A DNA stretch of 64,000 nt from Elusimicrobiota bacterium (GCA_016208085.1 JACQYT010000015.1:2775-66774); one strand, 5' to 3'; counted from the stretch's first letter, positions 2,087-60,313 are shown. Made by a program: numbers and translations. The notes: generated by a model not told the origin, from the letters alone.

Positions 2087-2191
2087 AGGGCAGGGTACAG
2101 GGTAGAGGGGTCAGGGTATAGGGTTCATTTGGGGTAAGGAGTTCCATATTTCCGCACCCTATACCCTTTACCCTAACCCCTATACCCTACC
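2087..2191 (-). repeat. Class A word hairpin (GGGTA-type G-tract arm / TACCC-type C-tract arm) in the GT9 leader
   Basis: Arms 2087-2124 and 2156-2191. Inner 12 bp are a perfect complement (agggtatagggt/accctataccct); outer words are permuted. The loop carries ATGGAACTCCTTACCCC on the gene strand. Confidence 0.7.
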
Positions 2192-3534: not shown

Positions 3535-5039
3535 GCTCGTTTCTCCCGCGATCTTTCAAGCAGTTCTTTCGCCGCGTCAAAGACCTTGTCCGGCGTTATC
3601 AGCCGCATGCACAGAAAATGCCCGCGGGGGCAGGAGGCGGAGCCGTGCAGCGCGCAGGGGCGGCAGGCCAGGTCCGCCTCAAGCACCGCGTTCCGTTCTC
3701 CGTAAGGGAAAAACCCCAGCTCTTTTGTGGTTGGCCCGAAGACGGCGGCGACCGGCACGCCGAAAGCCACGGCTATATGCATGGGGCCGGAATCATTGGT
3801 TATAAAAATTTTCAGCCTTTTAACGAGAGCCATCAACTCCTCTATTCCGGTTTTACCCGTCAGGTTAAGGCAGGTTCCAGGCCCGGCGGCGGCCTCTATT
3901 TGGGCGTTCCACGCGGCCTCGTCTTTTGCGCCCACCAGCAGGACGCGGGCGCCGTACGCGGCGGACAGCTTTTTTATAAGCCGGGCCCAATGCCGCGCCG
4001 GCCAGCGCTTGGTGGGCCAGACCGAGCCGGGGTTGGCGCCGATAAAAATGTCGGTCCCCGCTCCCTTCAGAGCGGCGGAGCTCTCGCGAAGCGGCGGGAA
4101 CCGGGTCTGCGCCGGGCCCGGGGTCAGCGGGAGCAGCAGGGTCAGATTACGTTCCAGGTCGTGTATCAGCCAGGAGAACGGGACCCTGTGCGTGAAAAAA
4201 AAACTCCCGGCGCTGGAGTCAAAACCGATGCGCACCGGTATCCCGGCAAGCCGGGCCAGCAGCGCGCTCCTGAACGACCGGTGCGGAACTATCGCGATGT
4301 CGAATTTTCTTCTCTTCAGTTCGCCGGCCAGCCTGCGGAACTCAGGCCAGAACGAGCCGGCCTCCCTTTTATTGTCCGTTATTATTTCGGCGGCAAGGCC
4401 GCAGGAGGCGAATAGCGCGGCCGTGTCGGGACGCGCGACCACGGTAATATCGGAGTCCGGCGCGGCTTTCCTTATTTTTGCAAGCAGCGGCAGCGTCAGG
4501 ACGCAGTCCCCCAGGAACGCGGTCTGCAGCAGGCAGATCCGCTTGCGACCTTGCGCGGAGACGGCCGGACCGGGCTCAAGGACCCAATCGCCCAGCAACG
4601 GCTCGCGGCAGACGACGGGCACGCCTATCTTCTCAAGGACCTGGAGGTACCGCTCAAGGGTGCGCTTTTCAAGCGCCGGGTTCGGCACCCTGAAATTGAC
4701 GAAGAGACGGCGCGCCAAAGAATCCTTTTTGTAGCGCGCTTTGACAGGTATTGCGGAACCCGCGCACAGCAGCAGGCTGCGGAGGTTGGCGTGGAGGTCC
4801 AGCAGGATATCGTACCGGCCGCGCTTTATCTCCCGAAGGGCTGAAAAAATCCCGGTGAAAGGCAGCGCCGCGGACACGAACGGGTTTTTCCGGACGGCGG
4901 CGGCGAACTGCGGCTTGACCAGCATGGTTATGCGCGCGGCGGGCCAGCGCTCCTTGAGATTCCTCAGAACCGGGGCCGTAAGTATGATGTCGCCCAGGGA
5001 GGACAGTCTTATTATAAGGATATCGGGAGCCGTTTCCAT
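3531..5039 (-). CDS. Glycosyltransferase family 9 with an extra N-terminal half-domain
   Basis: Two GT9 N-terminal signatures in one 502-aa ORF: ILIIRLSSLGDIILTAPVLRNLKERWP and ICLLQTAFLGDCVLTLPLLAKIRKAAP. C-terminal NDSGPMHIAVAFG. Confidence 0.8.
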   Translation of the reverse strand: METAPDILIIRLSSLGDIILTAPVLRNLKERWPAARITMLVKPQFAAAVRKNPFVSAALPFTGIFSALREIKRGRYDILLDLHANLRSLLLCAGSAIPVKARYKKDSLARRLFVNFRVPNPALEKRTLERYLQVLEKIGVPVVCREPLLGDWVLEPGPAVSAQGRKRICLLQTAFLGDCVLTLPLLAKIRKAAPDSDITVVARPDTAALFASCGLAAEIITDNKREAGSFWPEFRRLAGELKRRKFDIAIVPHRSFRSALLARLAGIPVRIGFDSSAGSFFFTHRVPFSWLIHDLERNLTLLLPLTPGPAQTRFPPLRESSAALKGAGTDIFIGANPGSVWPTKRWPARHWARLIKKLSAAYGARVLLVGAKDEAAWNAQIEAAAGPGTCLNLTGKTGIEELMALVKRLKIFITNDSGPMHIAVAFGVPVAAVFGPTTKELGFFPYGERNAVLEADLACRPCALHGSASCPRGHFLCMRLITPDKVFDAAKELLERSREKRA

Positions 5040-5040
5040 A

Positions 5041-5110
5041 AGGGCAGGGTATAGGGTAGAGGGGTTAGGGTATAGGGTAAAGGAGTTTCTTATTTCTGTA
5101 CCCTTTCCCC
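5041..5110 (-). repeat. Class A word repeat, paralogous to 2087-2191
   Basis: ccataagggcagggtatagggtagaggggttagggtatagggt directly abuts the GT9 start. It is near-identical to the sequence abutting the other GT9 start at 2084. Short C-arm at 5099-5110. Confidence 0.7.
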
Positions 5111-5259
5111 GCTATGCTGTACAGAATAAAAATTATATCATTTGTAGAACAGTAAAAAAGCAAGAGAGCCGGACAGCGAGAAAGCAAGAAAGTAAAAAAG
5201 TTTTTACTGTCACGCTCTCCGGCTGTCGCGCTGTCACGCTACGCCTGAAACGAGACTCT

Positions 5260-14704: not shown

Positions 14705-15499
14705 TCATCCTTTCTCCAGTAGCTCTTCGGCTTTCAGGCCGGTTTCATTCAGGACTTTTTCAAGCTCTGCCGCGCTTTCTTCAAGGCCGGCCGCCTGCGG
14801 GAGATAAAACGGCGCCGAATAGGCGACGACGGCCCTGCCGAACGGAAGAGGTATCTGAAACCGGTCCCAGGAGCGGGTCAGGATTTTATTGGACAGGGCG
14901 CCGGCGATGGCTATTATAGGCAGCCCCGTTTTCCGGGCCAGATAAACCGCGCCTTTCTGCACTTTGCGGGCCGGGCCCTTCGGACCGTCCGGCGTGATTG
15001 CCAGCGTTTGGCCGTCACGGGCGCATTGGATAAGCTGGATCAGGGAACGCAATCCGCCGGAACTGGTGGAGCCGCGCACCAGGACATAATTGAAACGCTC
15101 AAGCATCTGCGCCGCATATTCCCCGTCCCCGCTTTTGCTTGCCAGCGCGGTTATGCCCCGGCCGCGGTGGGCGTAAATGAGGAAGGCCTGCTGACAGTGC
15201 CAGATGACGTATATGACCTGCCCCGCCCTTTGGCCCGTTCGGAAAAAGGGCGGGGCCTGCCCAACGTCCGCAGGCTCGTTCGCGCCTTGAGGCGGGGGGA
15301 GGGTCCCAGCGGGCGGAGGGAGGGGCGCGCCGTAGAACTTGATGGAAGTGGTAAACCCCACCAGCCTCAGATAGAAACACCCGGCCAGGGCCGCCAGGCG
15401 GTGAATAAACCCGAAAAATTTAGTTGAATTTTCCGGGAAGGCTAAAGGATTAGGGATAAAGGCTAAGGGGCGAAAAAACCGTTGTATCTTTTCCTTCAT
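14705..15499 (-). CDS. DUF374-type lysophospholipid acyltransferase family protein
   Basis: LAITPDGPKGPARKV motif; sits next to waaA as is usual for DUF374. N-terminus MKEKIQRFFRPLAFIPNPLAF is encoded by a class B element. Confidence 0.7.
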   Translation of the reverse strand: MKEKIQRFFRPLAFIPNPLAFPENSTKFFGFIHRLAALAGCFYLRLVGFTTSIKFYGAPLPPPAGTLPPPQGANEPADVGQAPPFFRTGQRAGQVIYVIWHCQQAFLIYAHRGRGITALASKSGDGEYAAQMLERFNYVLVRGSTSSGGLRSLIQLIQCARDGQTLAITPDGPKGPARKVQKGAVYLARKTGLPIIAIAGALSNKILTRSWDRFQIPLPFGRAVVAYSAPFYLPQAAGLEESAAELEKVLNETGLKAEELLEKG

Positions 15500-21362: not shown

Positions 21363-22550
21363 TTATTTTACATCGTCAATCGTAACGCCCGGATAATAGT
21401 GTTTGAGTATCCTTTTATAGTTTTTGCCGTTCAGAGCCATCTGTCTGGCGCCGTCCTGGCACATGCCCACGCCGTGCCCCCAGCCTTTGCCCTTAAACTC
21501 ATAGCCGCCTCTCAAGCGCGCCACGCGGGTGATGAAAGTGCTTCTTATGTCGGAGGCGCCGAAATGCCTGCGCAGCGCGGAAGCCGCGACCGTAACGGAG
21601 CCGGCGTCGGTCGCAAACCGGAAAGCCCGCGTCCGGCCGGAGCGGTCTTTTTTATGTATCCGCGCGCCCTTAATCTTGAGCGCCGTGGAACCGTTTTTCT
21701 GTATAAACGCCAGCAGGTCCCCGGCCGCGACGTAGAAATTCCAGCGATAATGCGGCGAATTGGAGCAGAAAGGGTCTCTGATGCCGGCCAGGGGTTTAAT
21801 GCTGTCTCCGCTCCACGCGGCGCCGGCGCTTGCCGTATGCCCGCCGCAGCAGGCGTGAAAGAAAGCGGTTATCAGTTTCCCTTTATAGGCGAGCACCGAA
21901 CCCCTGGTGGAATTCACGGCTTTAATGATCTTTGAGTTTACGAGGGAAGCTCCGTTATAGACCTGCATCTCCGCGCCGTCCGTGAGGTCGTAATCTTTTT
22001 TCGGATTTATGTTCTTAAGGGCGTAGGTGCGCGACGCGATTGCCTGGGCCTTAAGCGCTTCAAGGGGCCAATCCGGGCTCATCTCCACTCCCAGCACTCC
22101 GTAGAGATAATCCTCTACGGAAAGCTGTTCTATGACCTCCAGCTTTTCGTCCGCCGCGGTTTTAATGAAGAGCTCGCCTTTATAGAATCGGCCGTTGAGG
22201 TTCACTTTCCCGCCGCCGTCGGGGGGCATAAGCTTTACGGGCGACTCAAGCGTAGCGCCCGCAAGCGCAAGCCGTGAAGGGCTGATATACTTTATCTCGT
22301 ATGAAGACCTTTCAAGCAGCATGTATTTCTGACCGGTCCTGACTTCTATCGCATACACCCTGCTTGAGGTCTTGAGCGTGAAGCGCGGCGTATTCCTGGC
22401 GATGGCCACCCTTATGACGGCGCCGTTCCCGTCGCCGGAATCCGCAGCCGCGCCATGGAGGAAAAACAGTAAAAGAAGCAGGGATAAAGGATTAAGGATA
22501 AAGGCTAAAGGGCGGAAAAAATCTTTTTGTTTTCGTGTTTTTTCCTTCAT
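21363..22550 (-). CDS. SpoIID/LytB domain protein
   Basis: FFHACCGGHTASAGAAW and GHGVGMCQDGA. The signal peptide is partly encoded by a class B element. Confidence 0.8.
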   Translation of the reverse strand: MKEKTRKQKDFFRPLAFILNPLSLLLLLFFLHGAAADSGDGNGAVIRVAIARNTPRFTLKTSSRVYAIEVRTGQKYMLLERSSYEIKYISPSRLALAGATLESPVKLMPPDGGGKVNLNGRFYKGELFIKTAADEKLEVIEQLSVEDYLYGVLGVEMSPDWPLEALKAQAIASRTYALKNINPKKDYDLTDGAEMQVYNGASLVNSKIIKAVNSTRGSVLAYKGKLITAFFHACCGGHTASAGAAWSGDSIKPLAGIRDPFCSNSPHYRWNFYVAAGDLLAFIQKNGSTALKIKGARIHKKDRSGRTRAFRFATDAGSVTVAASALRRHFGASDIRSTFITRVARLRGGYEFKGKGWGHGVGMCQDGARQMALNGKNYKRILKHYYPGVTIDDVK

Positions 22551-24773: not shown

Positions 24774-24780
24774 ACGTGGA

Positions 24781-24874
24781 TAGTCTAGAGTCTAAAGTCG
24801 AGAGTCTAGAGTGTAGAGTTTAAAGCACATTTCTCTTTGATCTTTAGACTTTAGACTCTCCACTTTAGACTTTA
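24781..24874 (-). repeat. Class C word hairpin (TAGACTTTAGACT family) between yebC and ruvC
   Basis: Arms 24781-24823 and 24841-24874. The yebC TAA is the first triplet of one arm. The loop holds an ATG opening a 12-codon mini-ORF. Confidence 0.65.
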
Positions 24875-27120: not shown

Positions 27121-27197
27121 CAGGGAAAAGGCTGAAGGATAAGCTTAAGGCTGAAGGGCATGAGGAGAAAAGAAAAGTATTTAAGGTGAATACTTTT

Positions 27198-30100
27198 ATG
27201 AAGACTTTAAAGGCGGATAACTTGTCTATTGCGCAGCGGCCGGCCGCGTCCTTGCAGATTTTAAATATAAAAAAACCGCTTTGGGTCCTGCTCTTTGTTT
27301 TTGCCTCTACCCTCTACCCTCTCCCCTCTGCCTTCTCCCCTGCTTTTGCGGCCGGGCCGCGCAATAAAAACGCGCGCAGAATCTCGCCGCTGTCCGATTC
27401 GCTCCGGAAAGTCGGCAAAACCCCCGATCGCGCCGCCCGGGAAGCTTTCCGTAAATTCGTTTCAAAAACAGGCAATTCGCCCTGGCGCGTGCGCTATAGC
27501 CCGAAAACCGCCCTGCCCGAAGCCGTGGTGGGCGGCAAAACCGGCAAATATCCGGGCGGACCCCAGGCCGCGGCCCTGGCTTTCTTAAACGACAATAAGG
27601 ACCTGTTCAAAGTGGACGTCTCCCAGCTCAAGCCGGCGTTCTCCAGGACCTTTCTGGGCGTGACCCACCTGCAGTATTCCCAGTTCTACAATTCCATACC
27701 TGTTGAGTTCGCTTATGTCAGGGTCCACGTTACCGCCTCCGGCGAAGTGACAGGCTGCCAGTCTAAATTTGAGCCGGATATAAATATCGCCGTACTGCCG
27801 TCCATTCCGGCTGATTACGCCGCCGGGATCGCTTCAGGCGACTCCGGCTTTAAGGCCAGGGCGCATAAACCGGAATTGGTCATATTTCCGGATGCCGACG
27901 CGGGCGGCGCCTTGAAACTGGCCTGGAAACTAAAGGTCAGGGCTGCGGATGCGGCCAGCGGCGTCTGGATCTATTACGTGGACGCCTCAAACGGCGGCAT
28001 TCTTTTTAAATATAACGACCTGCGCTATGTCTGCTCGGATAACACAAAATCCACCGGCACAGTTTCCGGCACGGTCTATGACATTTCGCCCTGGCCTGTC
28101 GGCGTAAGCAATAACGCCCCCTATTGGACCAAGCCGGTCTTAAGGCCCATAACCGATCAGTATGTCTGGATAGGAAGCTATCTAGACAAGACCATCACCA
28201 GGCCCCTGAACGCGACGAGCGCCGAATATTGCGGCGATCTGATCGGCAAGACCGGCAAGGCGTTCGCCTCGCTTAAAGGCCCTTATTTCGCCGTTACCAA
28301 TTTCAGGGGCCAGAGCGCTCATTTCGACAACGGCGGCGGAGTCTGGAAGGAGAGCCCTGTATCAAAACAAAGCCCGCATCCGTATGAAAATTCCTATACG
28401 TATCCTCCCTATACCGTGACTATTCCCGATACCTGGACGGCCGACGGAGATACTTTTGCCAAGGCGATGCCGCGCTTCGCCGCTTCCGTCTCCGACCCGT
28501 TCCAGGTGGGGGCTATGGATATTGAAGGCACGATAACCGACTGGGATGTGCTTACCATCAAGAACGCGGCGGGCAATATAGCGGGAAACTATACAGGTAA
28601 AAGAACCAAGCCGTTTTACGGCGCGGCGGTTGAAAGCCCTGAATACAGCGTTAATCTCAAAACCGATGAAACCGGCGTCTATAACGGCTTTTCCATAGAC
28701 AGCTCAAGATACCTGGTACTGACCGATAATCCGCCCGGCGAAAACAATCTCACCGGCTCAATCGTCTGGTCCACCACGACCGCGGGGATCAATATGGACA
28801 CGAGCGCAGGCGTGGAAAACGCGCTGGACGAAGTAAACGCTTTCTACCATTTAACCAAAGCCCGCGATTATTTCGGCACTGTCAATAAAGACCCGAATAA
28901 CGGCGGCGCCGCGGCGGCCGACCTTTTAAAACAGGTGCCAGTGATGGTGCACGCGCACGGCACCGCGGACAATCTCTGCGCGCCCGGCAGCGCCGGCGGC
29001 GGGGATTGCGTCGGCGGGATGATGAACGCCTGGTACGACGCGGAAGGCGACAACCTCGTCTTCGGCGACGGCCCTATGGACGAATACGGCAATTACCGCT
29101 CTTTCGCGCTGGACGGCACCATCGTCCGCCATGAATACACCCACCTGGCAGTCAACCGAATCTATCCTGTCATCAATTTCGGGGAATTCGGGGCTATTTC
29201 CGAGGCGCTGGCGGATTATTTTTCCCTCGCGTCTTTCCGGGCCGGCGGAGCCGATCTGGATATTATCGGTAATTTCCTCGGCTCCGGATACCGCGATTTA
29301 TCAGGCGGCGCAGGCATAAAGAAAATGCCGGGGGATTGGACGGGAGAAGTGCACGACGACAGCCTGATCCTGTCCCAGGCCTTATGGAGGCTGAAAAACA
29401 GCACGCCGACGACCACCACGGACCTCGGGAACTTCTCCGCTTCAATCTATTTTCCGAATATGCCCCGGTCCGACGTGTTCGTTTATACCGCGCTGTTCTA
29501 TTTTCCGGATAATTTCGCCAATTTCTATGACGCCATGATCGAGGCCTGCAAACAGCTGCCCGGCAGCGGCTGCGACGCGGCCATGCAGAACAAGATAACC
29601 CTCGCTTTTTCGTCGCATGCCATAGCGGGCATACAGGCCGGGGGCGACGCCTTCGAGGGGAACAACGGCCCCGAATGGGCCACGGATATAAGCACGCTGT
29701 CTTCTCTTTCAGCCACCATTGCTCCCGTCGGAGACCTGGATTATTATTCAATACCGCTTGCGGCCGGAAATTTCACCGCCCGCCTGGACCTGCCCGCGAG
29801 CAGCGCTTACCTCTACCAGGCCTACTCCCTGTTCCTTTTTGATAATTTACGCAATTACATAACGCAATACGAGCCCGTGATCTACGGAGGCGGCGCCTGC
29901 CGCGATACCGGCCCCTGCTATACGGAGGCGGCCGGCGTTACGCTCAACTATAATGTCGCCGCGGCGGGCCGCTATTACCTGGTGGTCGCGGGTTCTCTTA
30001 ATCAATGGGGCGGCAATTCCCAGGCCAGCTCCCAGGTTCCGTACAGGCTGAACCTTTCCTATACGCCCAAAGGTTCCGCGAACGCGGCGATAGCCGCCGC

Positions 30101-30764
30101 CGTTTACGATAACGACACGATAAGTTTTACCGTGCCGTATCTTAAAGCCGCGATGGAGCTTCACCCGTCTTCCACGACCCCGGACATCCCGCCGGGGGTG
30201 GAAACGGTGTTTCAATACGCCCAGCTGCGCGATCATAACTACGTTCCGCTGGCCCTGGCCAGGACGGATACCGGCAGTTATCTTGAAGTGGACCTCAGCA
30301 GCCTGAGATACGACGATAAGGTTGATAACCGCGAGGTACTCAAAGGCAGCGTAAGACTTAAACCGGGTTTTGCCAGCCGCTATCCGGGAGTGGGAACGGT
30401 CTATCTTGAGATATTCGGCCGCAATCATATGGGCAGGGTCATGTCAATGGGCGTTTCTAACGCCATAAATCTTTCCACTAATAAATCCGCCGCGACGGCT
30501 TACAATAACATCATAACGGGCGCCGGCTCACGGGCGATAATAAAATACGACGTGCTGACGGCAGGAACCCTGTCCATAAAAATATATACCGCTGCCGGCA
30601 CGCTGGTAAAAACAGTTTATGACGGCCCCGTGCCGGCGGGCAAAGGCACCGTAGACTGGGATGGAACCAACAGCAAAGGCTCCAAAGCGGCCAGCGGCAT
30701 CTATTTCCTGAAGGTATCCGGCGCGGGCCTCAATACGGTGGATAAGATAGCGGTGGTTAGGTAG
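27198..30764 (+). CDS. Secreted thermolysin-like (M4-type) zinc metalloprotease with propeptide, PPC-like domain and T9SS-type CTD
   Basis: HEYTHL...GAISEALADYF aligns with thermolysin HELTH...GAINEAISDIF. FTP/PepSY-like N-terminal region; DLDYYSIPLAAGNFTARL PPC-like. C-terminus LSIKIYTAAGTLVKTV...ASGIYFLKV...KIAVVR. Start taken at MKTLKADN (27198) within ORF 27117..30764. Confidence 0.8.
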   Translation: MKTLKADNLSIAQRPAASLQILNIKKPLWVLLFVFASTLYPLPSAFSPAFAAGPRNKNARRISPLSDSLRKVGKTPDRAAREAFRKFVSKTGNSPWRVRYSPKTALPEAVVGGKTGKYPGGPQAAALAFLNDNKDLFKVDVSQLKPAFSRTFLGVTHLQYSQFYNSIPVEFAYVRVHVTASGEVTGCQSKFEPDINIAVLPSIPADYAAGIASGDSGFKARAHKPELVIFPDADAGGALKLAWKLKVRAADAASGVWIYYVDASNGGILFKYNDLRYVCSDNTKSTGTVSGTVYDISPWPVGVSNNAPYWTKPVLRPITDQYVWIGSYLDKTITRPLNATSAEYCGDLIGKTGKAFASLKGPYFAVTNFRGQSAHFDNGGGVWKESPVSKQSPHPYENSYTYPPYTVTIPDTWTADGDTFAKAMPRFAASVSDPFQVGAMDIEGTITDWDVLTIKNAAGNIAGNYTGKRTKPFYGAAVESPEYSVNLKTDETGVYNGFSIDSSRYLVLTDNPPGENNLTGSIVWSTTTAGINMDTSAGVENALDEVNAFYHLTKARDYFGTVNKDPNNGGAAAADLLKQVPVMVHAHGTADNLCAPGSAGGGDCVGGMMNAWYDAEGDNLVFGDGPMDEYGNYRSFALDGTIVRHEYTHLAVNRIYPVINFGEFGAISEALADYFSLASFRAGGADLDIIGNFLGSGYRDLSGGAGIKKMPGDWTGEVHDDSLILSQALWRLKNSTPTTTTDLGNFSASIYFPNMPRSDVFVYTALFYFPDNFANFYDAMIEACKQLPGSGCDAAMQNKITLAFSSHAIAGIQAGGDAFEGNNGPEWATDISTLSSLSATIAPVGDLDYYSIPLAAGNFTARLDLPASSAYLYQAYSLFLFDNLRNYITQYEPVIYGGGACRDTGPCYTEAAGVTLNYNVAAAGRYYLVVAGSLNQWGGNSQASSQVPYRLNLSYTPKGSANAAIAAAVYDNDTISFTVPYLKAAMELHPSSTTPDIPPGVETVFQYAQLRDHNYVPLALARTDTGSYLEVDLSSLRYDDKVDNREVLKGSVRLKPGFASRYPGVGTVYLEIFGRNHMGRVMSMGVSNAINLSTNKSAATAYNNIITGAGSRAIIKYDVLTAGTLSIKIYTAAGTLVKTVYDGPVPAGKGTVDWDGTNSKGSKAASGIYFLKVSGAGLNTVDKIAVVR

Positions 30765-30906
30765 GGTAGAAGGGAAAAGGTAGAGGGGAGAGGAAGAAAG
30801 AGTTGGCGGATTTATGCATATTTCCAATTATAAAAGGGAACATATTCTTGTCCCGGCATTTCTGCTGGTTTTTACCCTCTCCTTTCTAACCTCTACCCTC
30901 TACCCT
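30762..30906 (+). repeat. Class A word hairpin spanning the protease stop and the PorV-like start
   Basis: G-arm 30762-30797 begins with the TAG stop. The loop holds ATG 30814. C-arm 30873-30906 encodes FTLSFLTSTLYP of the signal peptide. Confidence 0.7.
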
Positions 30907-31998
30907 GTCTTCGCGGGCGGGCCCGGTTCCGCCGGCGTCCAGGTTTTAAAGACCGATATCGGCCCCAGGGCCATGGGCATGGGCGGCGCTTTTGTGCCGG
31001 CGGCGGACGATATTTATTCCGTGACTTATAACCCGGCCGGCCTGGGCCGGCTTTATCTTCCCGAAATTTCGGCGATGTATCTTTCCGGCTTTTCCGACGC
31101 AAAGCTCCAATTTCTGGGTTATGGCATGCCGCTGCCGATCAACGGCCTGATCGGTCTTGACAAGCCCGGCGTGGCCGTTTCGGCCATACTCTCGCAGAGC
31201 GGTAATTTTACGCACCGCCGCATAAATGACGACGGCTCCATTTCGTCCAGGAGCATGGACGCCGAAGGCACAAAAGTATTTGCTTTGAGCTACGGCGAAA
31301 GGGTATATTCAGCGGAGATGAAGATAGAGGGTTATGAAGCCAGGATCGATCAATTCCTGGGCCTCTCGGCCAAGTACGTAAAATCCGAACTGCTGGGAAC
31401 CTACCCCGCTTCGGCCCTGGCTTTCGACGCGGGCTGGCTGCTGGTGGAGCCCGGGCTCGGTCTTACGTGCGGCGCTTCTCTTTCAAATTACGGGGGCAGT
31501 ATAAAATATCTGGAAGAATCCTATCCCCTGCCGTCCATAATGCGGCTGGGCCTGTCCTGGCAGCGGCCCACCATAATGGACCAGTCCGTCCTGCTGGCCC
31601 TAGAATATGACTTCTATACGAACGAGGGAATCAAAAGTTTCAAGGGCGGACTTGAATATCATTTCCAAAAGTTACTCAACGCGCGTTTCGGTTATAAAGC
31701 CGTGGACGATAATAAAGGCCTGACCCTGGGCGTCGGCGTGCGCCACGAGGGCTTCGCGCTGGATTTTGCCATGTCACTTGCCAATGAAGTCTTCAATTCC
31801 TCACAGGCGTCCTTCAGCTATAAATTCGCGGGCTGGCGCATCAGGGAATATAAAAAGTCCGTACAGTACCGCGATCAGGAAGAAAATAAGCCGCCGCCCA
31901 AAAAAGTGGACAAACCCGCCAAAAAAGAACCGGCCCGGCCGAAAAAACCGCAGGAACCCGGTCAGAAGAAAGATTCCGATTTCTTCATGCTTTATTAA
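30814..31998 (+). CDS. PorV/PorQ-like outer-membrane beta-barrel with Lys/Pro-rich C-terminal tail
   Basis: N-terminal GPRAMGMGGAFVPAADDIYSVTYNPAGLG pattern; alternating beta-strand sequence; tail KPPPKKVDKPAKKEPARPKKPQEPGQKK. Confidence 0.6.
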   Translation: MHISNYKREHILVPAFLLVFTLSFLTSTLYPVFAGGPGSAGVQVLKTDIGPRAMGMGGAFVPAADDIYSVTYNPAGLGRLYLPEISAMYLSGFSDAKLQFLGYGMPLPINGLIGLDKPGVAVSAILSQSGNFTHRRINDDGSISSRSMDAEGTKVFALSYGERVYSAEMKIEGYEARIDQFLGLSAKYVKSELLGTYPASALAFDAGWLLVEPGLGLTCGASLSNYGGSIKYLEESYPLPSIMRLGLSWQRPTIMDQSVLLALEYDFYTNEGIKSFKGGLEYHFQKLLNARFGYKAVDDNKGLTLGVGVRHEGFALDFAMSLANEVFNSSQASFSYKFAGWRIREYKKSVQYRDQEENKPPPKKVDKPAKKEPARPKKPQEPGQKKDSDFFMLY

Positions 31999-37788: not shown

Positions 37789-38068
37789 AAATAAAATGTT
37801 GTCCGACAACATTTTATCCTACCCGGCACGGGGTTTTCTTCAACACCTTGCCGGGGTGGAGCGAAGCGACACAATTCAACTGTATCCAACAGGATGAGGG
37901 GAAAATTTCTTTCCCCCTCAAACTCCTCCTTGCCCCAAGGTTACCCCGCCCGAAGAAAGGCTAAAGGATAAAGGCTGAAGGATGAAGGAAAAACAAAGAG
38001 ATTATTCCGGCCTTTAGCCTTTATCCCTGATCCTTTATCCTTTCTTTAGGGCGGGGTATGGTAAAAAT
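37789..38068 (+). repeat. Composite modular element X, copy 1
   Basis: 280 bp shared with 57190-57531. Modules: aaaatgttgtc-cga-caacatttt hairpin; cccggcacggggttttcttca; gaggggaaa-atttc-tttccccctc; and a CCCCGCCC/GGGCGGGG stem enclosing a class B hairpin. Confidence 0.8.
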
Positions 38069-41229: not shown

Positions 41230-41337
41230 AAGCGGTTATATAATTTTATCAAATTATGAGGGGATATCGGCCCGCTCGGTTTTTTTAATAACGGCAAAAG
41301 TATTATAATGATTTTAATCTGTCTGAACGGAGGCAAT

Positions 41338-42330
41338 ATGGCTCAAACGTTTGCGACTGTGTCTTATAAGGAACTGGGCTTCGTGAACACTAAAGAAATG
41401 TTCGCCAGGGCCAACAAGGGAGGCTACGCGGTGCCGGCCTACAATTTCAACAACATGGAACAACTGCAGGCCATTTTGACCGCCTGCGTCAAGAGCCGCT
41501 CGCCGGTGATCCTCCAGATCTCCAAAGGCGCCAGGGAATATGCCAACCCCACCCTGCTGAGGTGGCTGGGCCGCGGCGGCATTGAAATGATGAAAGAGAT
41601 GACGGATAAACCCATCCCGGTCGCCCTGCACCTGGACCACGGCGATTCTTTTGAATTGTGCAAATCCTGCATAGAAAACGGTTTTTCCTCCGTCATGTAT
41701 GACGGTTCCAGCCTCCCCTACGAAGAAAATCTCCGGATCACAAAACAGGTCGTGGAATACGCCCATCAGTTTGAGGTGACGGTGGAGGGCGAACTGGGAC
41801 GGCTGGCCGGAATAGAGGATGAGGTCTCTTCCGAAAAATCCCACTACACCGACCCGAACGTCGTCGAGGATTTTGTGAAACGCACCCAGGTGGACTCCCT
41901 GGCCATCTCTATCGGCACCAGCCACGGCGCCTTCAAGTTTAAGGTTAAACCCGGCGAGGCCGTGCCCGGCTTGAGGTTTGACATTCTTGAAGAAGTGGAA
42001 AAGCGCATACCAGGCTTCCCGATAGTCCTGCATGGGGCCTCCTCGGTGCTTGACGGCTATCTCGCCATGATCAATAAGTACGGCGGGAAGATGGAAGGCG
42101 CGGTGGGCGTTCCGGCCGAGCAACTGCGCCGCGCCGCCAAGTCCGCCGTCTGCAAGATAAACATAGACTCCGACGGCAGGCTGGTCATGACCGCCGTTAT
42201 CCGGAAAGTGTTCGGCGAAAAACCGGGCGAGTTCGACCCGCGCAAATACCTGGGCCCCGCCCGCGACGAACTGGTAAAGATGTACATGGACAAGAACCAG
42301 ACCGTGCTCGGCAGCGCGAACAGGGTGTAA
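41338..42330 (+). CDS. fba: Class II fructose-1,6-bisphosphate aldolase
   Basis: GGAGG RBS before ATG 41338; GGYAVPAYNFNNMEQLQAIL, PVALHLDHG, IGTSHGAFKF. Confidence 0.9.
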   Translation: MAQTFATVSYKELGFVNTKEMFARANKGGYAVPAYNFNNMEQLQAILTACVKSRSPVILQISKGAREYANPTLLRWLGRGGIEMMKEMTDKPIPVALHLDHGDSFELCKSCIENGFSSVMYDGSSLPYEENLRITKQVVEYAHQFEVTVEGELGRLAGIEDEVSSEKSHYTDPNVVEDFVKRTQVDSLAISIGTSHGAFKFKVKPGEAVPGLRFDILEEVEKRIPGFPIVLHGASSVLDGYLAMINKYGGKMEGAVGVPAEQLRRAAKSAVCKINIDSDGRLVMTAVIRKVFGEKPGEFDPRKYLGPARDELVKMYMDKNQTVLGSANRV

Positions 42331-42333
42331 AAA

Positions 42334-42407
42334 CAGGGTATAGGGGTTAGGGTAGAGGGTAGAGTTATAAGGAACTCCTTACCCTAAACCCTCTACCCTA
42401 TACCCTT
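42334..42407 (+). repeat. Class A word hairpin after fba
   Basis: G-arm cagggtataggggttagggtagagggtagag; loop ttataaggaactcc; C-arm ttaccctaaaccctctaccctataccctt. Confidence 0.7.
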
Positions 42408-57189: not shown

Positions 57190-57531
57190 AAATAAAATGT
57201 TGTCCGACAACATTTTATCTTACCCGGCACGGGGTTTTCTTCAACACCTTGCCGGGGTGGAGCGAAGCGACACAATTCAACTGTATCCAACAGGATGAGG
57301 GGGAAATTTCTTTCCCCCTCAAGGCTATGCCGGTAATTGTAGCGGGCGATGTGAATCGCCCTTCAAGCGGATTTACATCCGCCGCTACATTTTTGCCCCA
57401 AGGTTACCCCGCCCGAAGAAAGGCTAAAGGATAAAGGCTGAAGGATGAAGGAAAAACAAAGAGATTATTCCGGCCTTTAGCCTTTATCCCTGATCCTTTA
57501 TCCTTTCTTTAGGGCGGGGTATGGTAAAAAT
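57190..57531 (+). repeat. Composite modular element X, copy 2 (with nested REP)
   Basis: Same as 37789-38068, except that 8 nt (actcctcc) are replaced by about 72 nt containing REP 57338-57389. Confidence 0.8.
57338..57389. repeat. REP element (TGTAGCGG family) nested in element X
   Basis: tgtagcgggcgatgtgaatcgccc ttcaa gcggatttacatccgccgctaca. Confidence 0.8.
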
Positions 57532-57654: not shown

Positions 57655-59064
57655 ATGCCACCGGTAATTATGCTTTTGTTGTTAATCACACAACTCGTTC
57701 TGAGCGGAATAGCGGCTGCCGCCGTTTCCCAGGGCGGCGAATATTCCCTTTACCCCCGGATATTTTCTAACGGCGCGGCAATTGACAGGACTTCGGGAGA
57801 ATACTCCGCCTCCTTCGCCATAGCCCAGCAGAATCCGACAGGCGAGCCTGCCGAAGACGAATATTCGGCCGCGCTGGGTTTCTACAGCGGGCTCGGAAGC
57901 GGAGCGCCTCCGCAGATACTGAACCTGGGCAGCGCAATCGCCGGTGCGCTGGGGCCTGAGGTTTCCGGCTTCAAGCTTGGAGTCCCCCGGTTGTCCACCG
58001 TTTCACTGCAGTTCGACGAAGATATGCTGAGCGAGTCTTTTGCCTCCGCCATTAAGCTTACCGCGATACGGGACAGGAACGGCCGGCAGATAATTTCGGA
58101 ACTGCCGGCCGGCTATTCCTACGATCCGCAAAACAGGACGCTGGAGATCTGGCCCATAAGCGGGTCATGGAGCGGAAATACCTTCCACGAACTCACCATC
58201 TCAACTTCGGTCATCGACTACCAGGGGCTTTCCCTGGCGCAGGCCCTGGAGTTCCGTTTTGTGACGATGCTTGAAGCCGGCCAGGATAACACCGTGGTTT
58301 CCCCCGACGGCGCGGCCAGGATAATCCTGCCCGCGGGAGCGCTCCAAAAAGACGCTTACCTGGTATTCAACAGTTCGCCGTCGGAAAGTCCGCGCCGGGT
58401 GGACCCGGGGAAGCTCCAGGCGGCCACCGCGAAGCTCCAGAGCAGCAGGGGGAAATTCTATCTGCCCTACGCTTTCAACGAAATAAACGCCTACGATGCC
58501 CAAAACAGCCTTCTCTCCGGCAATTTTGCCAAACCCGGCCGTTTAACGCTTTTCTATCCGGATGCGGATTCGGACGGCCTTGTGGATTCGGCTGCGACGC
58601 CGATAAAGCAGAAGAACAGTTCGCTTTACTGGCTTGACGAACCAAGCGCTATGTGGGTGAAGCTGCCGGATTCCGGCGTGAACGCCGTCGACAGGCAGGT
58701 CACGGCAAGCGTGCCTCATTTTACGGTCTTTGCGGCAGTCGGCAGCGCGGAGTTTTCGGCACAGGACGCGTTCGCCTACCCGGTGCCTTTCCGCCCGCAC
58801 GGGCCTAACGCCGGCACGGGGGCGGGGCAAACCGGCGCCGAGTCCTCCGGCATCACTTTTATGAATCTCCCTTCGGAGGCTGAAATTTCCGTTTTCAACG
58901 CCAGGGGCGAGCTGGTCTGGAAAGGCCGGGACTCCGACGGGGACGGCAAGCATGTCTGGAACGTGAAGAACGACGACGGGTTTGCGGCCGCAAGCGGCGT
59001 TTATTTTTACGTTGTCCGCAGCGCGCGGGATTCAAAGACCGGTAAGCTGGTGATAATAAGATAG
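57655..59064 (+). CDS. Secreted Ig-like (SbsA/Big_5-type) protein with T9SS-type CTD
   Basis: Signal peptide; GEYS repeats; VSLQFDEDMLSESFASAIKL Ig-like domain. C-terminus AYPVPFRP...ISVFNARGELVWKG...ASGVYFYVV...GKLVIIR. Confidence 0.75.
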   Translation: MPPVIMLLLLITQLVLSGIAAAAVSQGGEYSLYPRIFSNGAAIDRTSGEYSASFAIAQQNPTGEPAEDEYSAALGFYSGLGSGAPPQILNLGSAIAGALGPEVSGFKLGVPRLSTVSLQFDEDMLSESFASAIKLTAIRDRNGRQIISELPAGYSYDPQNRTLEIWPISGSWSGNTFHELTISTSVIDYQGLSLAQALEFRFVTMLEAGQDNTVVSPDGAARIILPAGALQKDAYLVFNSSPSESPRRVDPGKLQAATAKLQSSRGKFYLPYAFNEINAYDAQNSLLSGNFAKPGRLTLFYPDADSDGLVDSAATPIKQKNSSLYWLDEPSAMWVKLPDSGVNAVDRQVTASVPHFTVFAAVGSAEFSAQDAFAYPVPFRPHGPNAGTGAGQTGAESSGITFMNLPSEAEISVFNARGELVWKGRDSDGDGKHVWNVKNDDGFAAASGVYFYVVRSARDSKTGKLVIIR

Positions 59065-59262
59065 GGTAGAGGGTAGAGGGTTTAGGGTAGAGGGTTTAGG
59101 GTAGAGGGGGGAAAAGACGGACGAAGATTAGAGCAGACGAAGAAAAATTGTAAAGCGGAACAGGGCGAATTTTATGAATACTTTAACGCATAACAGAAAC
59201 CGCGCTTTTATCCCGGCATTTCTGTTTGCCTGCACCCTATCCCCTATCCCCTCTACCCTAAC
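59062..59262 (+). repeat. Class A word hairpin spanning the CTD-protein stop and the PorV-like start
   Basis: Seven GGG tracts at 59064-59110, starting in the TAG stop. The loop holds ATG 59174. C-arm 59233-59262 encodes CTLSPIPSTLTP. Confidence 0.7.
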
Positions 59263-60313
59263 CCCTGTTTTCGCCGGCAGTTCCGCCGGGGCCACGGCAA
59301 TGAGCTTTCTGCGCATGGACCCCGCCGCCCACCAGACCGGCATGGGGGGGGTGGGAGTGGGGCTTTTTGAGAATCTTCAGAACATGTCCTACAACCCCGC
59401 CCTGCTCGGGATGCTGAAGCACAACGAGCTGGTCTTCTCGCACGCCAACTGGCTGGTTGATTCCAGGTTCCAGGACGTGGCGTTCGCTTTCGCCACCCGC
59501 TCTAAAGGCACTTTCGGCGTGAGATATAAAACTTTCAGCTACGGCTCAATAGATTCCTACGACGCCGCGGGCGGGAAGCTGGCTTCTTTCAAGGCGCGCG
59601 ATTCCCTTATTTCCGCAAGCTGGGGCGCGCAGCTTGAGCGCGTGCACGGCATCTGCGCCGGGATAACGATACGCCAGGCGACGCAGGACCTGTCTTTCGT
59701 TTCCGCCGGCGCCGTCATGGCCGACGCCGGTTTTTCCATGCTCCCTTTCAAAGAGCGGCTCAACGGAGCTTTTTCCTTCGGCGCGGCGGCTAAAAACCTG
59801 GGGCAAGAAGTAAAGTTTGACCGGGAAAGCGAATACTTGCCGTCCACGCTGGATTTCGGCTTCGGCTGGACGGGGTTGCTGGAAAGGCTGTCCGCCGGGG
59901 TGGACGTTCACATGCCGAAAGCGCAGGGTATCTATTACAGCGCCGGCGCCCAGTACAGGGCGGCCGACATGCTGGACCTGCGGGCCGGCTTTGAAACCGG
60001 CCAGGAACAGGGCTCGGGTCTGCGCCTGGGAGCGGGCGTCAACTTCGGAGCCTGGCAGCTGGATTACGCCTGGCTCCCGTTCGGACTTCTCGGCGACACC
60101 CACCACGCGAGCCTGCTGTACAGATTCGGGGGGCCGGCCGAATCCGCTTATGCGGCGGGTCTGAAGGCGCTGCGCAAGACGAGGTACGCCGAGGCGGTGC
60201 TTTATTTCGCAACGGCGCTTGAAGAGGACCCGACGATGGACAAAGCGGCGCTGAAACTGAAAGCTGCGCACAAACTGCTTCAGGAACAAAAGGAGCTGAA
60301 AGAGGCGCCATGA
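59174..60313 (+). CDS. PorV/PorQ-like outer-membrane beta-barrel with C-terminal TPR-like helix pair
   Basis: Paralog of 30814..31998 (IPAFLF...PVFAG signal peptide, HQTGMGGVGVG...YNPALLG). C-terminus AGLKALRKTRYAEAVLYFATALEEDP. Confidence 0.6.
   Translation: MNTLTHNRNRAFIPAFLFACTLSPIPSTLTPVFAGSSAGATAMSFLRMDPAAHQTGMGGVGVGLFENLQNMSYNPALLGMLKHNELVFSHANWLVDSRFQDVAFAFATRSKGTFGVRYKTFSYGSIDSYDAAGGKLASFKARDSLISASWGAQLERVHGICAGITIRQATQDLSFVSAGAVMADAGFSMLPFKERLNGAFSFGAAAKNLGQEVKFDRESEYLPSTLDFGFGWTGLLERLSAGVDVHMPKAQGIYYSAGAQYRAADMLDLRAGFETGQEQGSGLRLGAGVNFGAWQLDYAWLPFGLLGDTHHASLLYRFGGPAESAYAAGLKALRKTRYAEAVLYFATALEEDPTMDKAALKLKAAHKLLQEQKELKEAP

Follow-up and report, generated by a model that had tools for sequence, protein, structure and literature searches.

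We analysed a 64,000-nt stretch of DNA from an Elusimicrobiota bacterium (GCA_016208085.1 JACQYT010000015.1:2775-66774), referred to here as the window, within which all positions are counted. The subject of this analysis is a repeat-flanked junction between two plus-strand genes at 59062-59278, designated junction 2. The upstream gene, the cargo (57655..59064), encodes a secreted 469-residue protein with a Big_5 Ig-like domain and a C-terminal sorting domain (CTD) of the type IX secretion system type (Pfam: CHU_C 1.3e-6; Big_5 3.6e-6), which ends in KLVIIR followed by TAG. The downstream open reading frame (ORF), 59174-60313, encodes P0001, a PorV/PorQ-like outer-membrane barrel with a TPR-like tail, whose mature part spans 59279..60313 and whose relatives are named PorV/PorQ family by NCBI. 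A comparable junction, junction 1, lies between a protease gene and a second barrel, P0002, at 30762-30918.

A G-rich heptamer array on the plus strand, the 5' arm or G-arm (59062..59111), opens with the stop codon of the CTD-protein gene, TAG 59062-59064, and runs as six copies of GGGTAGA/GGGTTTA and then G6. An earlier note on this DNA had described seven G3+ tracts with 4-nt spacers starting from the TAG, and this is exactly what the sequence contains (59063-59111, 7-nt period); Tandem Repeats Finder reports period 7 with 6.6 copies and period 14 with 2.8 copies at 100% match. Stop codons number three, one and three in the three frames of the arm, so every frame is closed. A purine-rich spacer of variable length follows (59112..59160, plus strand), akin to the GATTAGAGCAGACG-like spacers of the junction-1 cassettes at the orthologous loci L018 and L021. 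The next block (59161..59278, plus strand), which we read as imported, holds a conserved GGCGAATTTT, the ATG at 59174 and 35 codons up to VFA|G. Within it lies the 3' arm or C-arm, a C-rich heptamer array on the same strand (59229..59266) that forms codons 19-31 of the barrel ORF, encodes (C)TLSPIPSTLTP and makes up the c-region of the signal peptide. Its codons 20-30, ACC CTA TCC CCT ATC CCC TCT ACC CTA ACC CCT, give the TLSPIPSTLTP that had been read there before. The array is imperfect, with 80% matches by Tandem Repeats Finder and each word different, and is complementary to the G-arm at 84% over 32 nt and 95% over 19 nt. The inter-arm distance varies from 117 to 128 nt with the choice of arm ends; the ATG does lie between the arms, but the 120-nt loop previously given for it is one value within this range.

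ATG 59174 is the first possible start after the in-frame stop, the next in-frame ATG falls within the conserved mature protein, and from no other start would this outer-membrane barrel have a signal peptide. Judged by eye, the features of a Sec signal peptide are present, with a basic n-region (MNTLTHNRNR), an h-region (AFIPAFLFA) and CTLSPIPSTLTPVFA|G before the conserved mature N-terminus AGxSAGxTxMxFLR, which begins at 59279. We rejected a lipoprotein reading of LFA|C within this peptide because the Cys position is not kept, being Tyr in a relative about 90% identical to the window and Leu, Tyr or Phe in cassette homologues.

Import of the signal-peptide block into junction 2

The window's two junctions can be aligned gap-free, at 67-68% identity, over the stretch between 13 nt ahead of the ATG and the signal-peptidase site, and an identical 14-mer, TCCCGGCATTTCTG, occurs in both. 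The earlier statement that the loop sequences differ between the two junctions is therefore only half true. The two signal-peptide regions are both 105 nt long and 67.6% identical without gaps, while the mature parts of the barrels average 52% with a maximum of 61%. The contrast is sharper with loci from other genomes. Against the junction-1 cassette of L016, junction 2 shows 88% identity over the stretch that begins 13 nt ahead of the ATG and ends at codon 37, with flanks at only 60% and 51%. Compared with its true ortholog L007, the same stretch is 54% identical, whereas the flanks reach 92% and 78%. Because identity is high in the cassette and low in the flanks for L016, and the reverse holds for L007, the block was brought into junction 2 from a junction-1-type locus. 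The protein sequences agree: 59161..59278 shares 29 of 35 residues with L016, and the barrel P0039, 56% identical to P0002 and matching P0001 at 95 of 378 residues in the mature part, yet matches P0001 at 29 of 35 signal-peptide residues. P0001's own orthologs carry unrelated signal peptides. When the protein collection was searched with signal-peptide residues 1-40, the query itself was the only hit among just nine candidates scored.

The alignments indicate that everything between the stop codon and the signal-peptidase site, a block of about 120-215 nt, was imported into junction 2 after the split from the L007 lineage, and that it replaced an earlier state in which the two genes overlapped at ATGA. 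We consider this import the most interesting concrete result of the analysis. It also bears on the argument, made in the earlier note, that recurrence of the layout at two paralogous junctions speaks for function rather than chance. Chance is indeed not the explanation. However, the layout is found at both junctions because the block was copied, that is, by one origin and copying and not by convergence, and its recurrence cannot be counted twice as evidence of function.

We compared six junction-2 orthologs (L001, L004, L006, L007, L013 and L014); scans of metagenomes and genomes for further ones returned one new locus, L013, plus the known L007. Gene order (kinase, regulator, CTD protein, barrel, TPR protein, CheY) is kept in L001, L004 and L006, the KLVIIR* terminus is identical in all orthologous CTD proteins, and the mature barrels align from AG[SD]SAG..FLR. 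Each ortholog has a different signal peptide. In L004, L006 and L014, whose barrels are 61-62% identical to P0001, the genes overlap at ATGA, and the barrel ORF takes in both a purine and a pyrimidine arm, made of other words, which are translated as a polar and then a hydrophobic stretch. L001 and L013 (75% and 78%) have plain spacers of 25 nt and 5 nt and ordinary Ala/Leu signal peptides without arrays. L007 (86%) has a window-like layout built of other words (GTAGGTR / CTACCTA), with a loop that cannot be aligned. A canonical G-quadruplex (G4) motif is present in none of the six. The earlier note had made conservation of the G-tracts in orthologs decisive for its own claim, and on this point the claim fails. 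In L006 (61% ortholog), positions 4003-4164 contain a 64-nt inverted repeat of 10-nt words (GGAAGGCTAC) with both arms translated, the purine arm as REGYGRLGKAMESYGRLRKVMES and the pyrimidine arm as FLLTSFAFCRLLSLSLAFFCLL, and with the ATGA overlap kept. The L001 and L013 contigs (7.5 kb and 2.7 kb) have no period-7 array anywhere, so array load may differ strongly between neighbouring lineages.

The ~90% identical relative, found in two other groundwater studies (runs X5 and X6), has the same cassette. It differs by 14 substitutions between the arms, including seven in the spacer 59112..59160, and by word changes at 59075, 59076 and 59082. Its G-arm is 15 nt shorter, a loss of about two tracts, and its C-arm has no indel.

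Junction 1 could be followed in seven loci, the window's own and the six orthologs L016-L021. P0002 has more than 100 relatives, one subclade of which has the signal peptide MNxLKHNRKRAFxxAFLFAFTLSPLPSTLxPxFAG. The window cassette (30762..30918, plus strand) repeats the parts of junction 2 in their order: TAG and a G-rich array, then a spacer, then ATG 30814 with a signal peptide of 35 codons that contains C-rich heptads. In the DNA of L016-L021 the common order is an array at the protease stop, a spacer of 41-88 nt, a conserved GCGAATTTT-ATG and a 35-codon signal peptide with C-rich heptads. The protease stop codon adjoins the array in all six and equals its first word in five. The 35-codon length is kept in these orthologs, and the sole indel is one of 21 nt in L021. 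There, at 1501-1600, the C-rich arm of P0053 is shorter by exactly 21 nt, equal to three heptads or seven codons; the protein still has a plausible signal peptide, so the heptad-coded segment seems dispensable. At 1441-1500 of L018 the 5' array is made of other words (GTGGTTA, GTGATGA, GTGAATA, GTAGTTA) and does not pair with the C-rich 3' arm of the same locus, which suggests that the arrays are replaceable on one side only. A canonical G4 motif occurs in three of the seven junction-1 loci.

A class of heptamer inverted repeats at gene junctions

The arms of junction 2 are not isolated repeats. The pattern GGGTWKAGGGTWKAGGG has 26 matches in the window where 0.11 are expected, and period-7 arrays number 23, compared with 0-4 for other periods (4-12) and 0-1 in shuffles. 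Most period-7 arrays form inverted pairs (2088/2154, 15438/15485, 22475/22539, 24776-24874, 30765/30877, 40835/40886, 42333/42377 and 59058/59227), and a further pair at 37952/38006 is duplicated at 57415/57469. The purine-rich arm comes first in all eight independent clear pairs. The words differ among elements (GGGTAKA, AAGGMTA and AGTCTAG families), so G3 tracts are not the common feature. What recurs on the sense strand is that the 5' arms have stops in all three frames (7/9 elements) and the 3' arms leave at least one frame open (8/9). The upstream stop codon lies in the first word, or 4-8 nt from it, in six elements, and the downstream start lies in the loop or an arm in four. The flanking genes, named by eye from N- or C-terminal sequence, are unrelated: GT9-type glycosyltransferases, RuvB/SpoIID-like, YebC-like/RuvC-like, an unannotated gene (41308-42330), a histidine kinase, and the protease/barrel pair. 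Because the G-poor words AAGGMTA and AGTCTAG give the same layout at junctions of unrelated housekeeping genes, the architecture is not specific to cargo/barrel pairs.

The repeat is also abundant in the source metagenomes. Four groundwater runs contain the window; in each, about 80 contigs match the G-arm, contigs end at the arm, and summed contig depth there is 170-350x that of the flanks, a rough proxy for copy number. The read evidence consists of assembled contigs, in which rare length variants are hidden. In contigs of other runs the G-arm is joined to the C-arm by a short AAGGAGTTCC-type loop, as in the compact GGGTAKA copies of the window. These lie at 2088..2190, before a GT9-type glycosyltransferase gene and with the short AAGGAGTTCC loop; at 5046..5112, adjoining the start of a second GT9-type gene and with a decayed second arm; and at 42333..42406, 4 nt past the stop codon of the upstream gene 41308-42330.

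The junction-2 element is a variant of known heptamer-repeat hairpins and an ordinary member of an unpublished, lineage-wide class. Repetitive extragenic palindromic (REP) sequences of proteobacteria, with the related bacterial interspersed mosaic elements (BIME) and REP doublets forming hairpins (REPIN), are abundant imperfect palindromes at gene junctions that are transcribed within operons and break short-read assemblies; REP elements are spread by REP-associated tyrosine transposases (RAYT) that recognise a GTAG head. They have no heptamer periodicity and are extragenic by definition, unlike the junction-2 element, whose 3' arm is coding sequence of the barrel (codons 19-31). Nearest among published repeats is the class of Rehm et al. 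2015 (PMC4692102), GGGNATC or GGGGA(C/T)T heptamers of Xanthomonas and Nostoc that form G4 in vitro and lie 0-50 nt after stop codons or overlap them. In Xanthomonas, 70-75 convergent inverted pairs per genome may form stem-loops competing with G4; length and sequence of the repeats vary among close species while the type is kept, and no function was identified (PMC4692102). Both systems are G3-containing tandem heptamers dispersed over the genome. The G-arm has the four or more tandem heptamers, each with a G3+ tract, of that class, and its placement agrees as well, with TAG 59062-59064 as the first word and a partner arm at 59229-59266. However, its words GGGTAGA and GGGTTTA (GGGTAKA) do not fit the published consensus, the phylum is different, sister elements use G-poor words, the second arm is in a coding region and translated in a signal peptide, and a start codon stands between the arms.

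Cyanobacterial short tandemly repeated repetitive (STRR) sequences form hairpins of 7-bp repeats within operons, for example between hupS and hupL; they have no established function, though a role in transcript stability or translational coupling has been proposed (PMC2670836). STRR are confined to cyanobacteria, use other words and are wholly intergenic, and they are not reported to give stops, starts or signal-peptide residues. In the Beggiatoaceae, TAACTGA heptamers occur as direct repeats upstream of start codons with indels in 7-nt steps between strains (PMC4679880), and that paper cites Mrazek et al. 2007 for heptamers as the most abundant class of long simple sequence repeats in most genomes surveyed. 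These arrays likewise cluster beside start codons, but they are direct with a single inverted case, use one fixed word and are untranslated, in all of which the junction-2 element differs. Our literature search returned no account of such repeats for Elusimicrobia, and none of heptanucleotide repeats within signal peptides. Three features are new with respect to the papers cited: translation of one arm in a signal peptide, a start codon placed between the arms, and transfer of a whole cassette from junction to junction.

We therefore think it probable that 59062-59278 is a junction cassette built from repeats, one of a lineage-wide class of heptamer-word inverted repeats, purine arm first, at gene junctions of this clade of Elusimicrobia. 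The cassette supplies the upstream gene with a stop codon as the first array word, precisely after the conserved last residue, with the array closing all three frames; it supplies an independent ATG in the spacer; and it supplies a 35-codon signal peptide in which codons 20-30 (TLSPIPSTLTP), the complementary C-rich array, are removable residues. The untranslated arm changes by 7-nt-scale indels and the translated arm by 21-nt indels, and the cassette has moved as a block. With the 5' arm untranslated and the Pro/Ser/Thr-rich 3' arm cut off by signal peptidase, the repeat may persist here because the position is permissive and nearly cost-free. Slippage and exchange with the many other copies could keep the arrays recognisable. 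A hairpin could form on the mRNA before ribosomes open the stem, and its effects may be at most generic ones of the REP or STRR kind, in that the upstream segment is made more stable or the two cistrons are uncoupled. The G4 potential would be a by-product of the GGGTAKA word.

If this reading is right, the locus shows cleanly, and in a way that can be dated, how a dispersed repeat was taken up into genes, as the stop of one and as signal-peptide residues of the next, and it is relevant to the origin of new signal peptides and operon junctions. Such repeats will affect the annotation of start codons and signal peptides in Elusimicrobia and in uncultivated lineages like them, and contigs break at the repeat arms. 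The case is also a warning that G4 motifs or hairpins seen at a single locus may be by-products of a repeat word and not regulators. A bolder possibility, of which we are doubtful, is that heptamer-hairpin blocks are portable modules of stop, start and signal peptide, with the arms and the FAG-coding motif serving as homology for swapping N-terminal export cassettes between unrelated or paralogous junctions, within or between Elusimicrobia genomes. Were this true, repeat-driven recombination would routinely rewire operon junctions and replace signal peptides in the lineage.

Hairpin, quadruplex and slippage as rival explanations

The repeat-built cassette has to be weighed against explanations in which the structure itself is the function. 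RNA from 59050-59285 has a predicted fold of -78.1 kcal/mol (z = -2.8 against dinucleotide shuffles), and the junction-1 cassette one of -68 kcal/mol (z = -3.8). A dedicated RNA hairpin could set the cargo:barrel ratio if the stem at the cargo stop slowed termination or protected the upstream mRNA while translation from the AUG in the loop needed the stem to be opened. The stable predicted stems are consistent with this, as are the position of the stem foot at the stop codon in both junctions and all junction-1 orthologs and the roles proposed for STRR hairpins between hupS and hupL (PMC2670836). Nevertheless, we regard it as unlikely. In both the minimum free energy and centroid folds of junction 2, the AUG and the 13 nt before it are unpaired in an open loop, with the AUG 63 nt past the 5' arm and 55 nt ahead of the 3' arm, so neither a Shine-Dalgarno sequence nor the AUG is held in a stem as a start-sequestering riboregulator requires. 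Of the start-in-hairpin architecture first proposed for this junction, the long imperfect hairpin and the AUG between its arms stand as predictions, but the start is not sequestered. Two of the junction-2 orthologs have no hairpin, three have kept the ATGA overlap, and the same architecture occurs at unrelated gene pairs.

Nor do the two arms behave as partners. The earlier note had suggested comparing arm complementarity in related genomes, and this comparison gave no partner-specific co-evolution. Compensatory changes were found neither among the ortholog arms nor in the ~90% relative, where the 15-nt change of the G-arm is unmatched in the C-arm. Pairing is lost in L018, whose 5' array now consists of non-complementary GTGNNTA words (z = -0.4), and in L021, where 21 nt are gone in frame from the 3' arm (z = +0.9). 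Cognate arm duplexes average -52.4 kcal/mol and non-cognate ones -49.3 kcal/mol, with no cognate preference (the L007 row was excluded from this matrix, its 3'-arm window having been placed too far 5'), and for the window G-arm the C-arms of L017 and L016 are better partners than the C-arm of the window. Across the loci aligned, the arms change by heptad-scale indels and word swaps, each independently of the other. What is conserved is therefore a stop-rich purine array that ends the first gene and in-frame pyrimidine heptads in the signal peptide of the second; no particular helix or quadruplex is.

A G4 switch would have the seven-tract G-arm form a DNA or RNA quadruplex that competes with the hairpin and modulates transcription or translation. 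The G-arm does contain the longest canonical G3N1-7 motif of the window, here with G3N4 spacing, and has a G4Hunter score of 1.67, so the earlier description of it as G4-capable holds at the level of sequence. Related GGGNATC repeats of Xanthomonas and Nostoc, often in inverted pairs past stop codons, fold as G4 in vitro (PMC4692102). However, the canonical motif is absent from every junction-2 ortholog and from four of the seven junction-1 loci, about two tracts are lost in the ~90% relative, the sister words AAGGMTA and AGTCTAG contain no G3 tract, and Rehm et al. found no regulatory role for such repeats (PMC4692102). We consider such a switch very improbable. Phase variation at a contingency locus, with heptamer slippage turning the barrel on and off or altering its signal peptide, is scarcely credible either. 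The G-arm differs in length at the heptad scale between close relatives and the gene products are surface-exposed, as such a locus would have it, but that arm is untranslated and no promoter-like site was found in the spacer. The translated C-arm is imperfect, and the only indel among orthologs is the in-frame one of 21 nt. No length variants were seen among contigs of the four source runs, which hide rare variants, and the class is also found at housekeeping genes. As one of a common family of repeats, copied ready-made from another junction, the element is probably not a purpose-built quadruplex or hairpin switch.

Some observations sit less comfortably with a repeat cassette that merely persists. 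Pairing of the arms beats that of shuffled partners in five of the eight validly scored loci (z = -2.4 to -5.2), and G-rich heptads after the stop codon are kept in six of the seven junction-1 loci across 54-82% protein identity. Such persistence exceeds what is expected of a neutral spacer, and either selection or continual homogenisation against other copies could account for it.

Further searches at junction 2 gave little else. No terminator-like site was found within 59064-59300, where the loop of 117-128 nt and the tail UGUUUUC do not make an intrinsic terminator, and the spacer contains no promoter-like or terminator-like site. Rfam has no match at the element, and only a tRNA scored above threshold in the window. 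Among RNA sequencing runs, none was found to contain the stretch. For a miniature inverted-repeat transposable element (MITE), no flanking direct repeat was found besides the heptads, though edges in a stop codon and a conserved coding motif could hide a duplication.

Other elements of the window

Several further elements were noted. The AGTCTAG-word hairpin at 24776-24874 takes up all the space separating two minus-strand genes (YebC-like and RuvC-like, by eye); its 5' arm opens with the upstream TAA, and the downstream ATG is 2 nt beyond its 3' arm. Two unrelated minus-strand genes, 14705-15499 and 21363-22550, both start with MKEK...FFRPLAFI(P/L)NPL, an N-terminus whose coding sequence lies in the loop and 3' arm of AAGGMTA-word hairpins. 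The AAGGMTA family therefore likewise supplies start codons and N-termini. A 121-nt composite occurs twice, at 37940-38060 and 57403-57523, and both copies have the same array coordinates, word sequence and fold energies. It consists of an outer stem CCCCGCCC...GGGCGGGG around an AAGGMTA heptamer hairpin; a sensor-kinase gene lies downstream of one copy and the CTD-protein gene downstream of the other.

C-rich heptads (CCTCTAC, CCCTCTC) that align with the barrel cassettes also occur in the signal peptide of the junction-1 protease itself (LLFVFASTLYPLPSAFSPAFA, 27198-27345). Upstream of them there is no clearly complementary G-arm, only an AAGGCTG-type array at 27128-27157. We also compared sense and antisense folds as a test of RNA-level selection, which proved uninformative, since the strand with the stabler fold is not consistently the coding one in the 11 hairpin elements of the window. 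The plus strand folds more stably than the minus strand in nine of the 11, regardless of gene orientation. This bias places G:T-type mismatches predominantly on one DNA strand, and it may reflect a replication-strand mutational bias rather than RNA-level selection.

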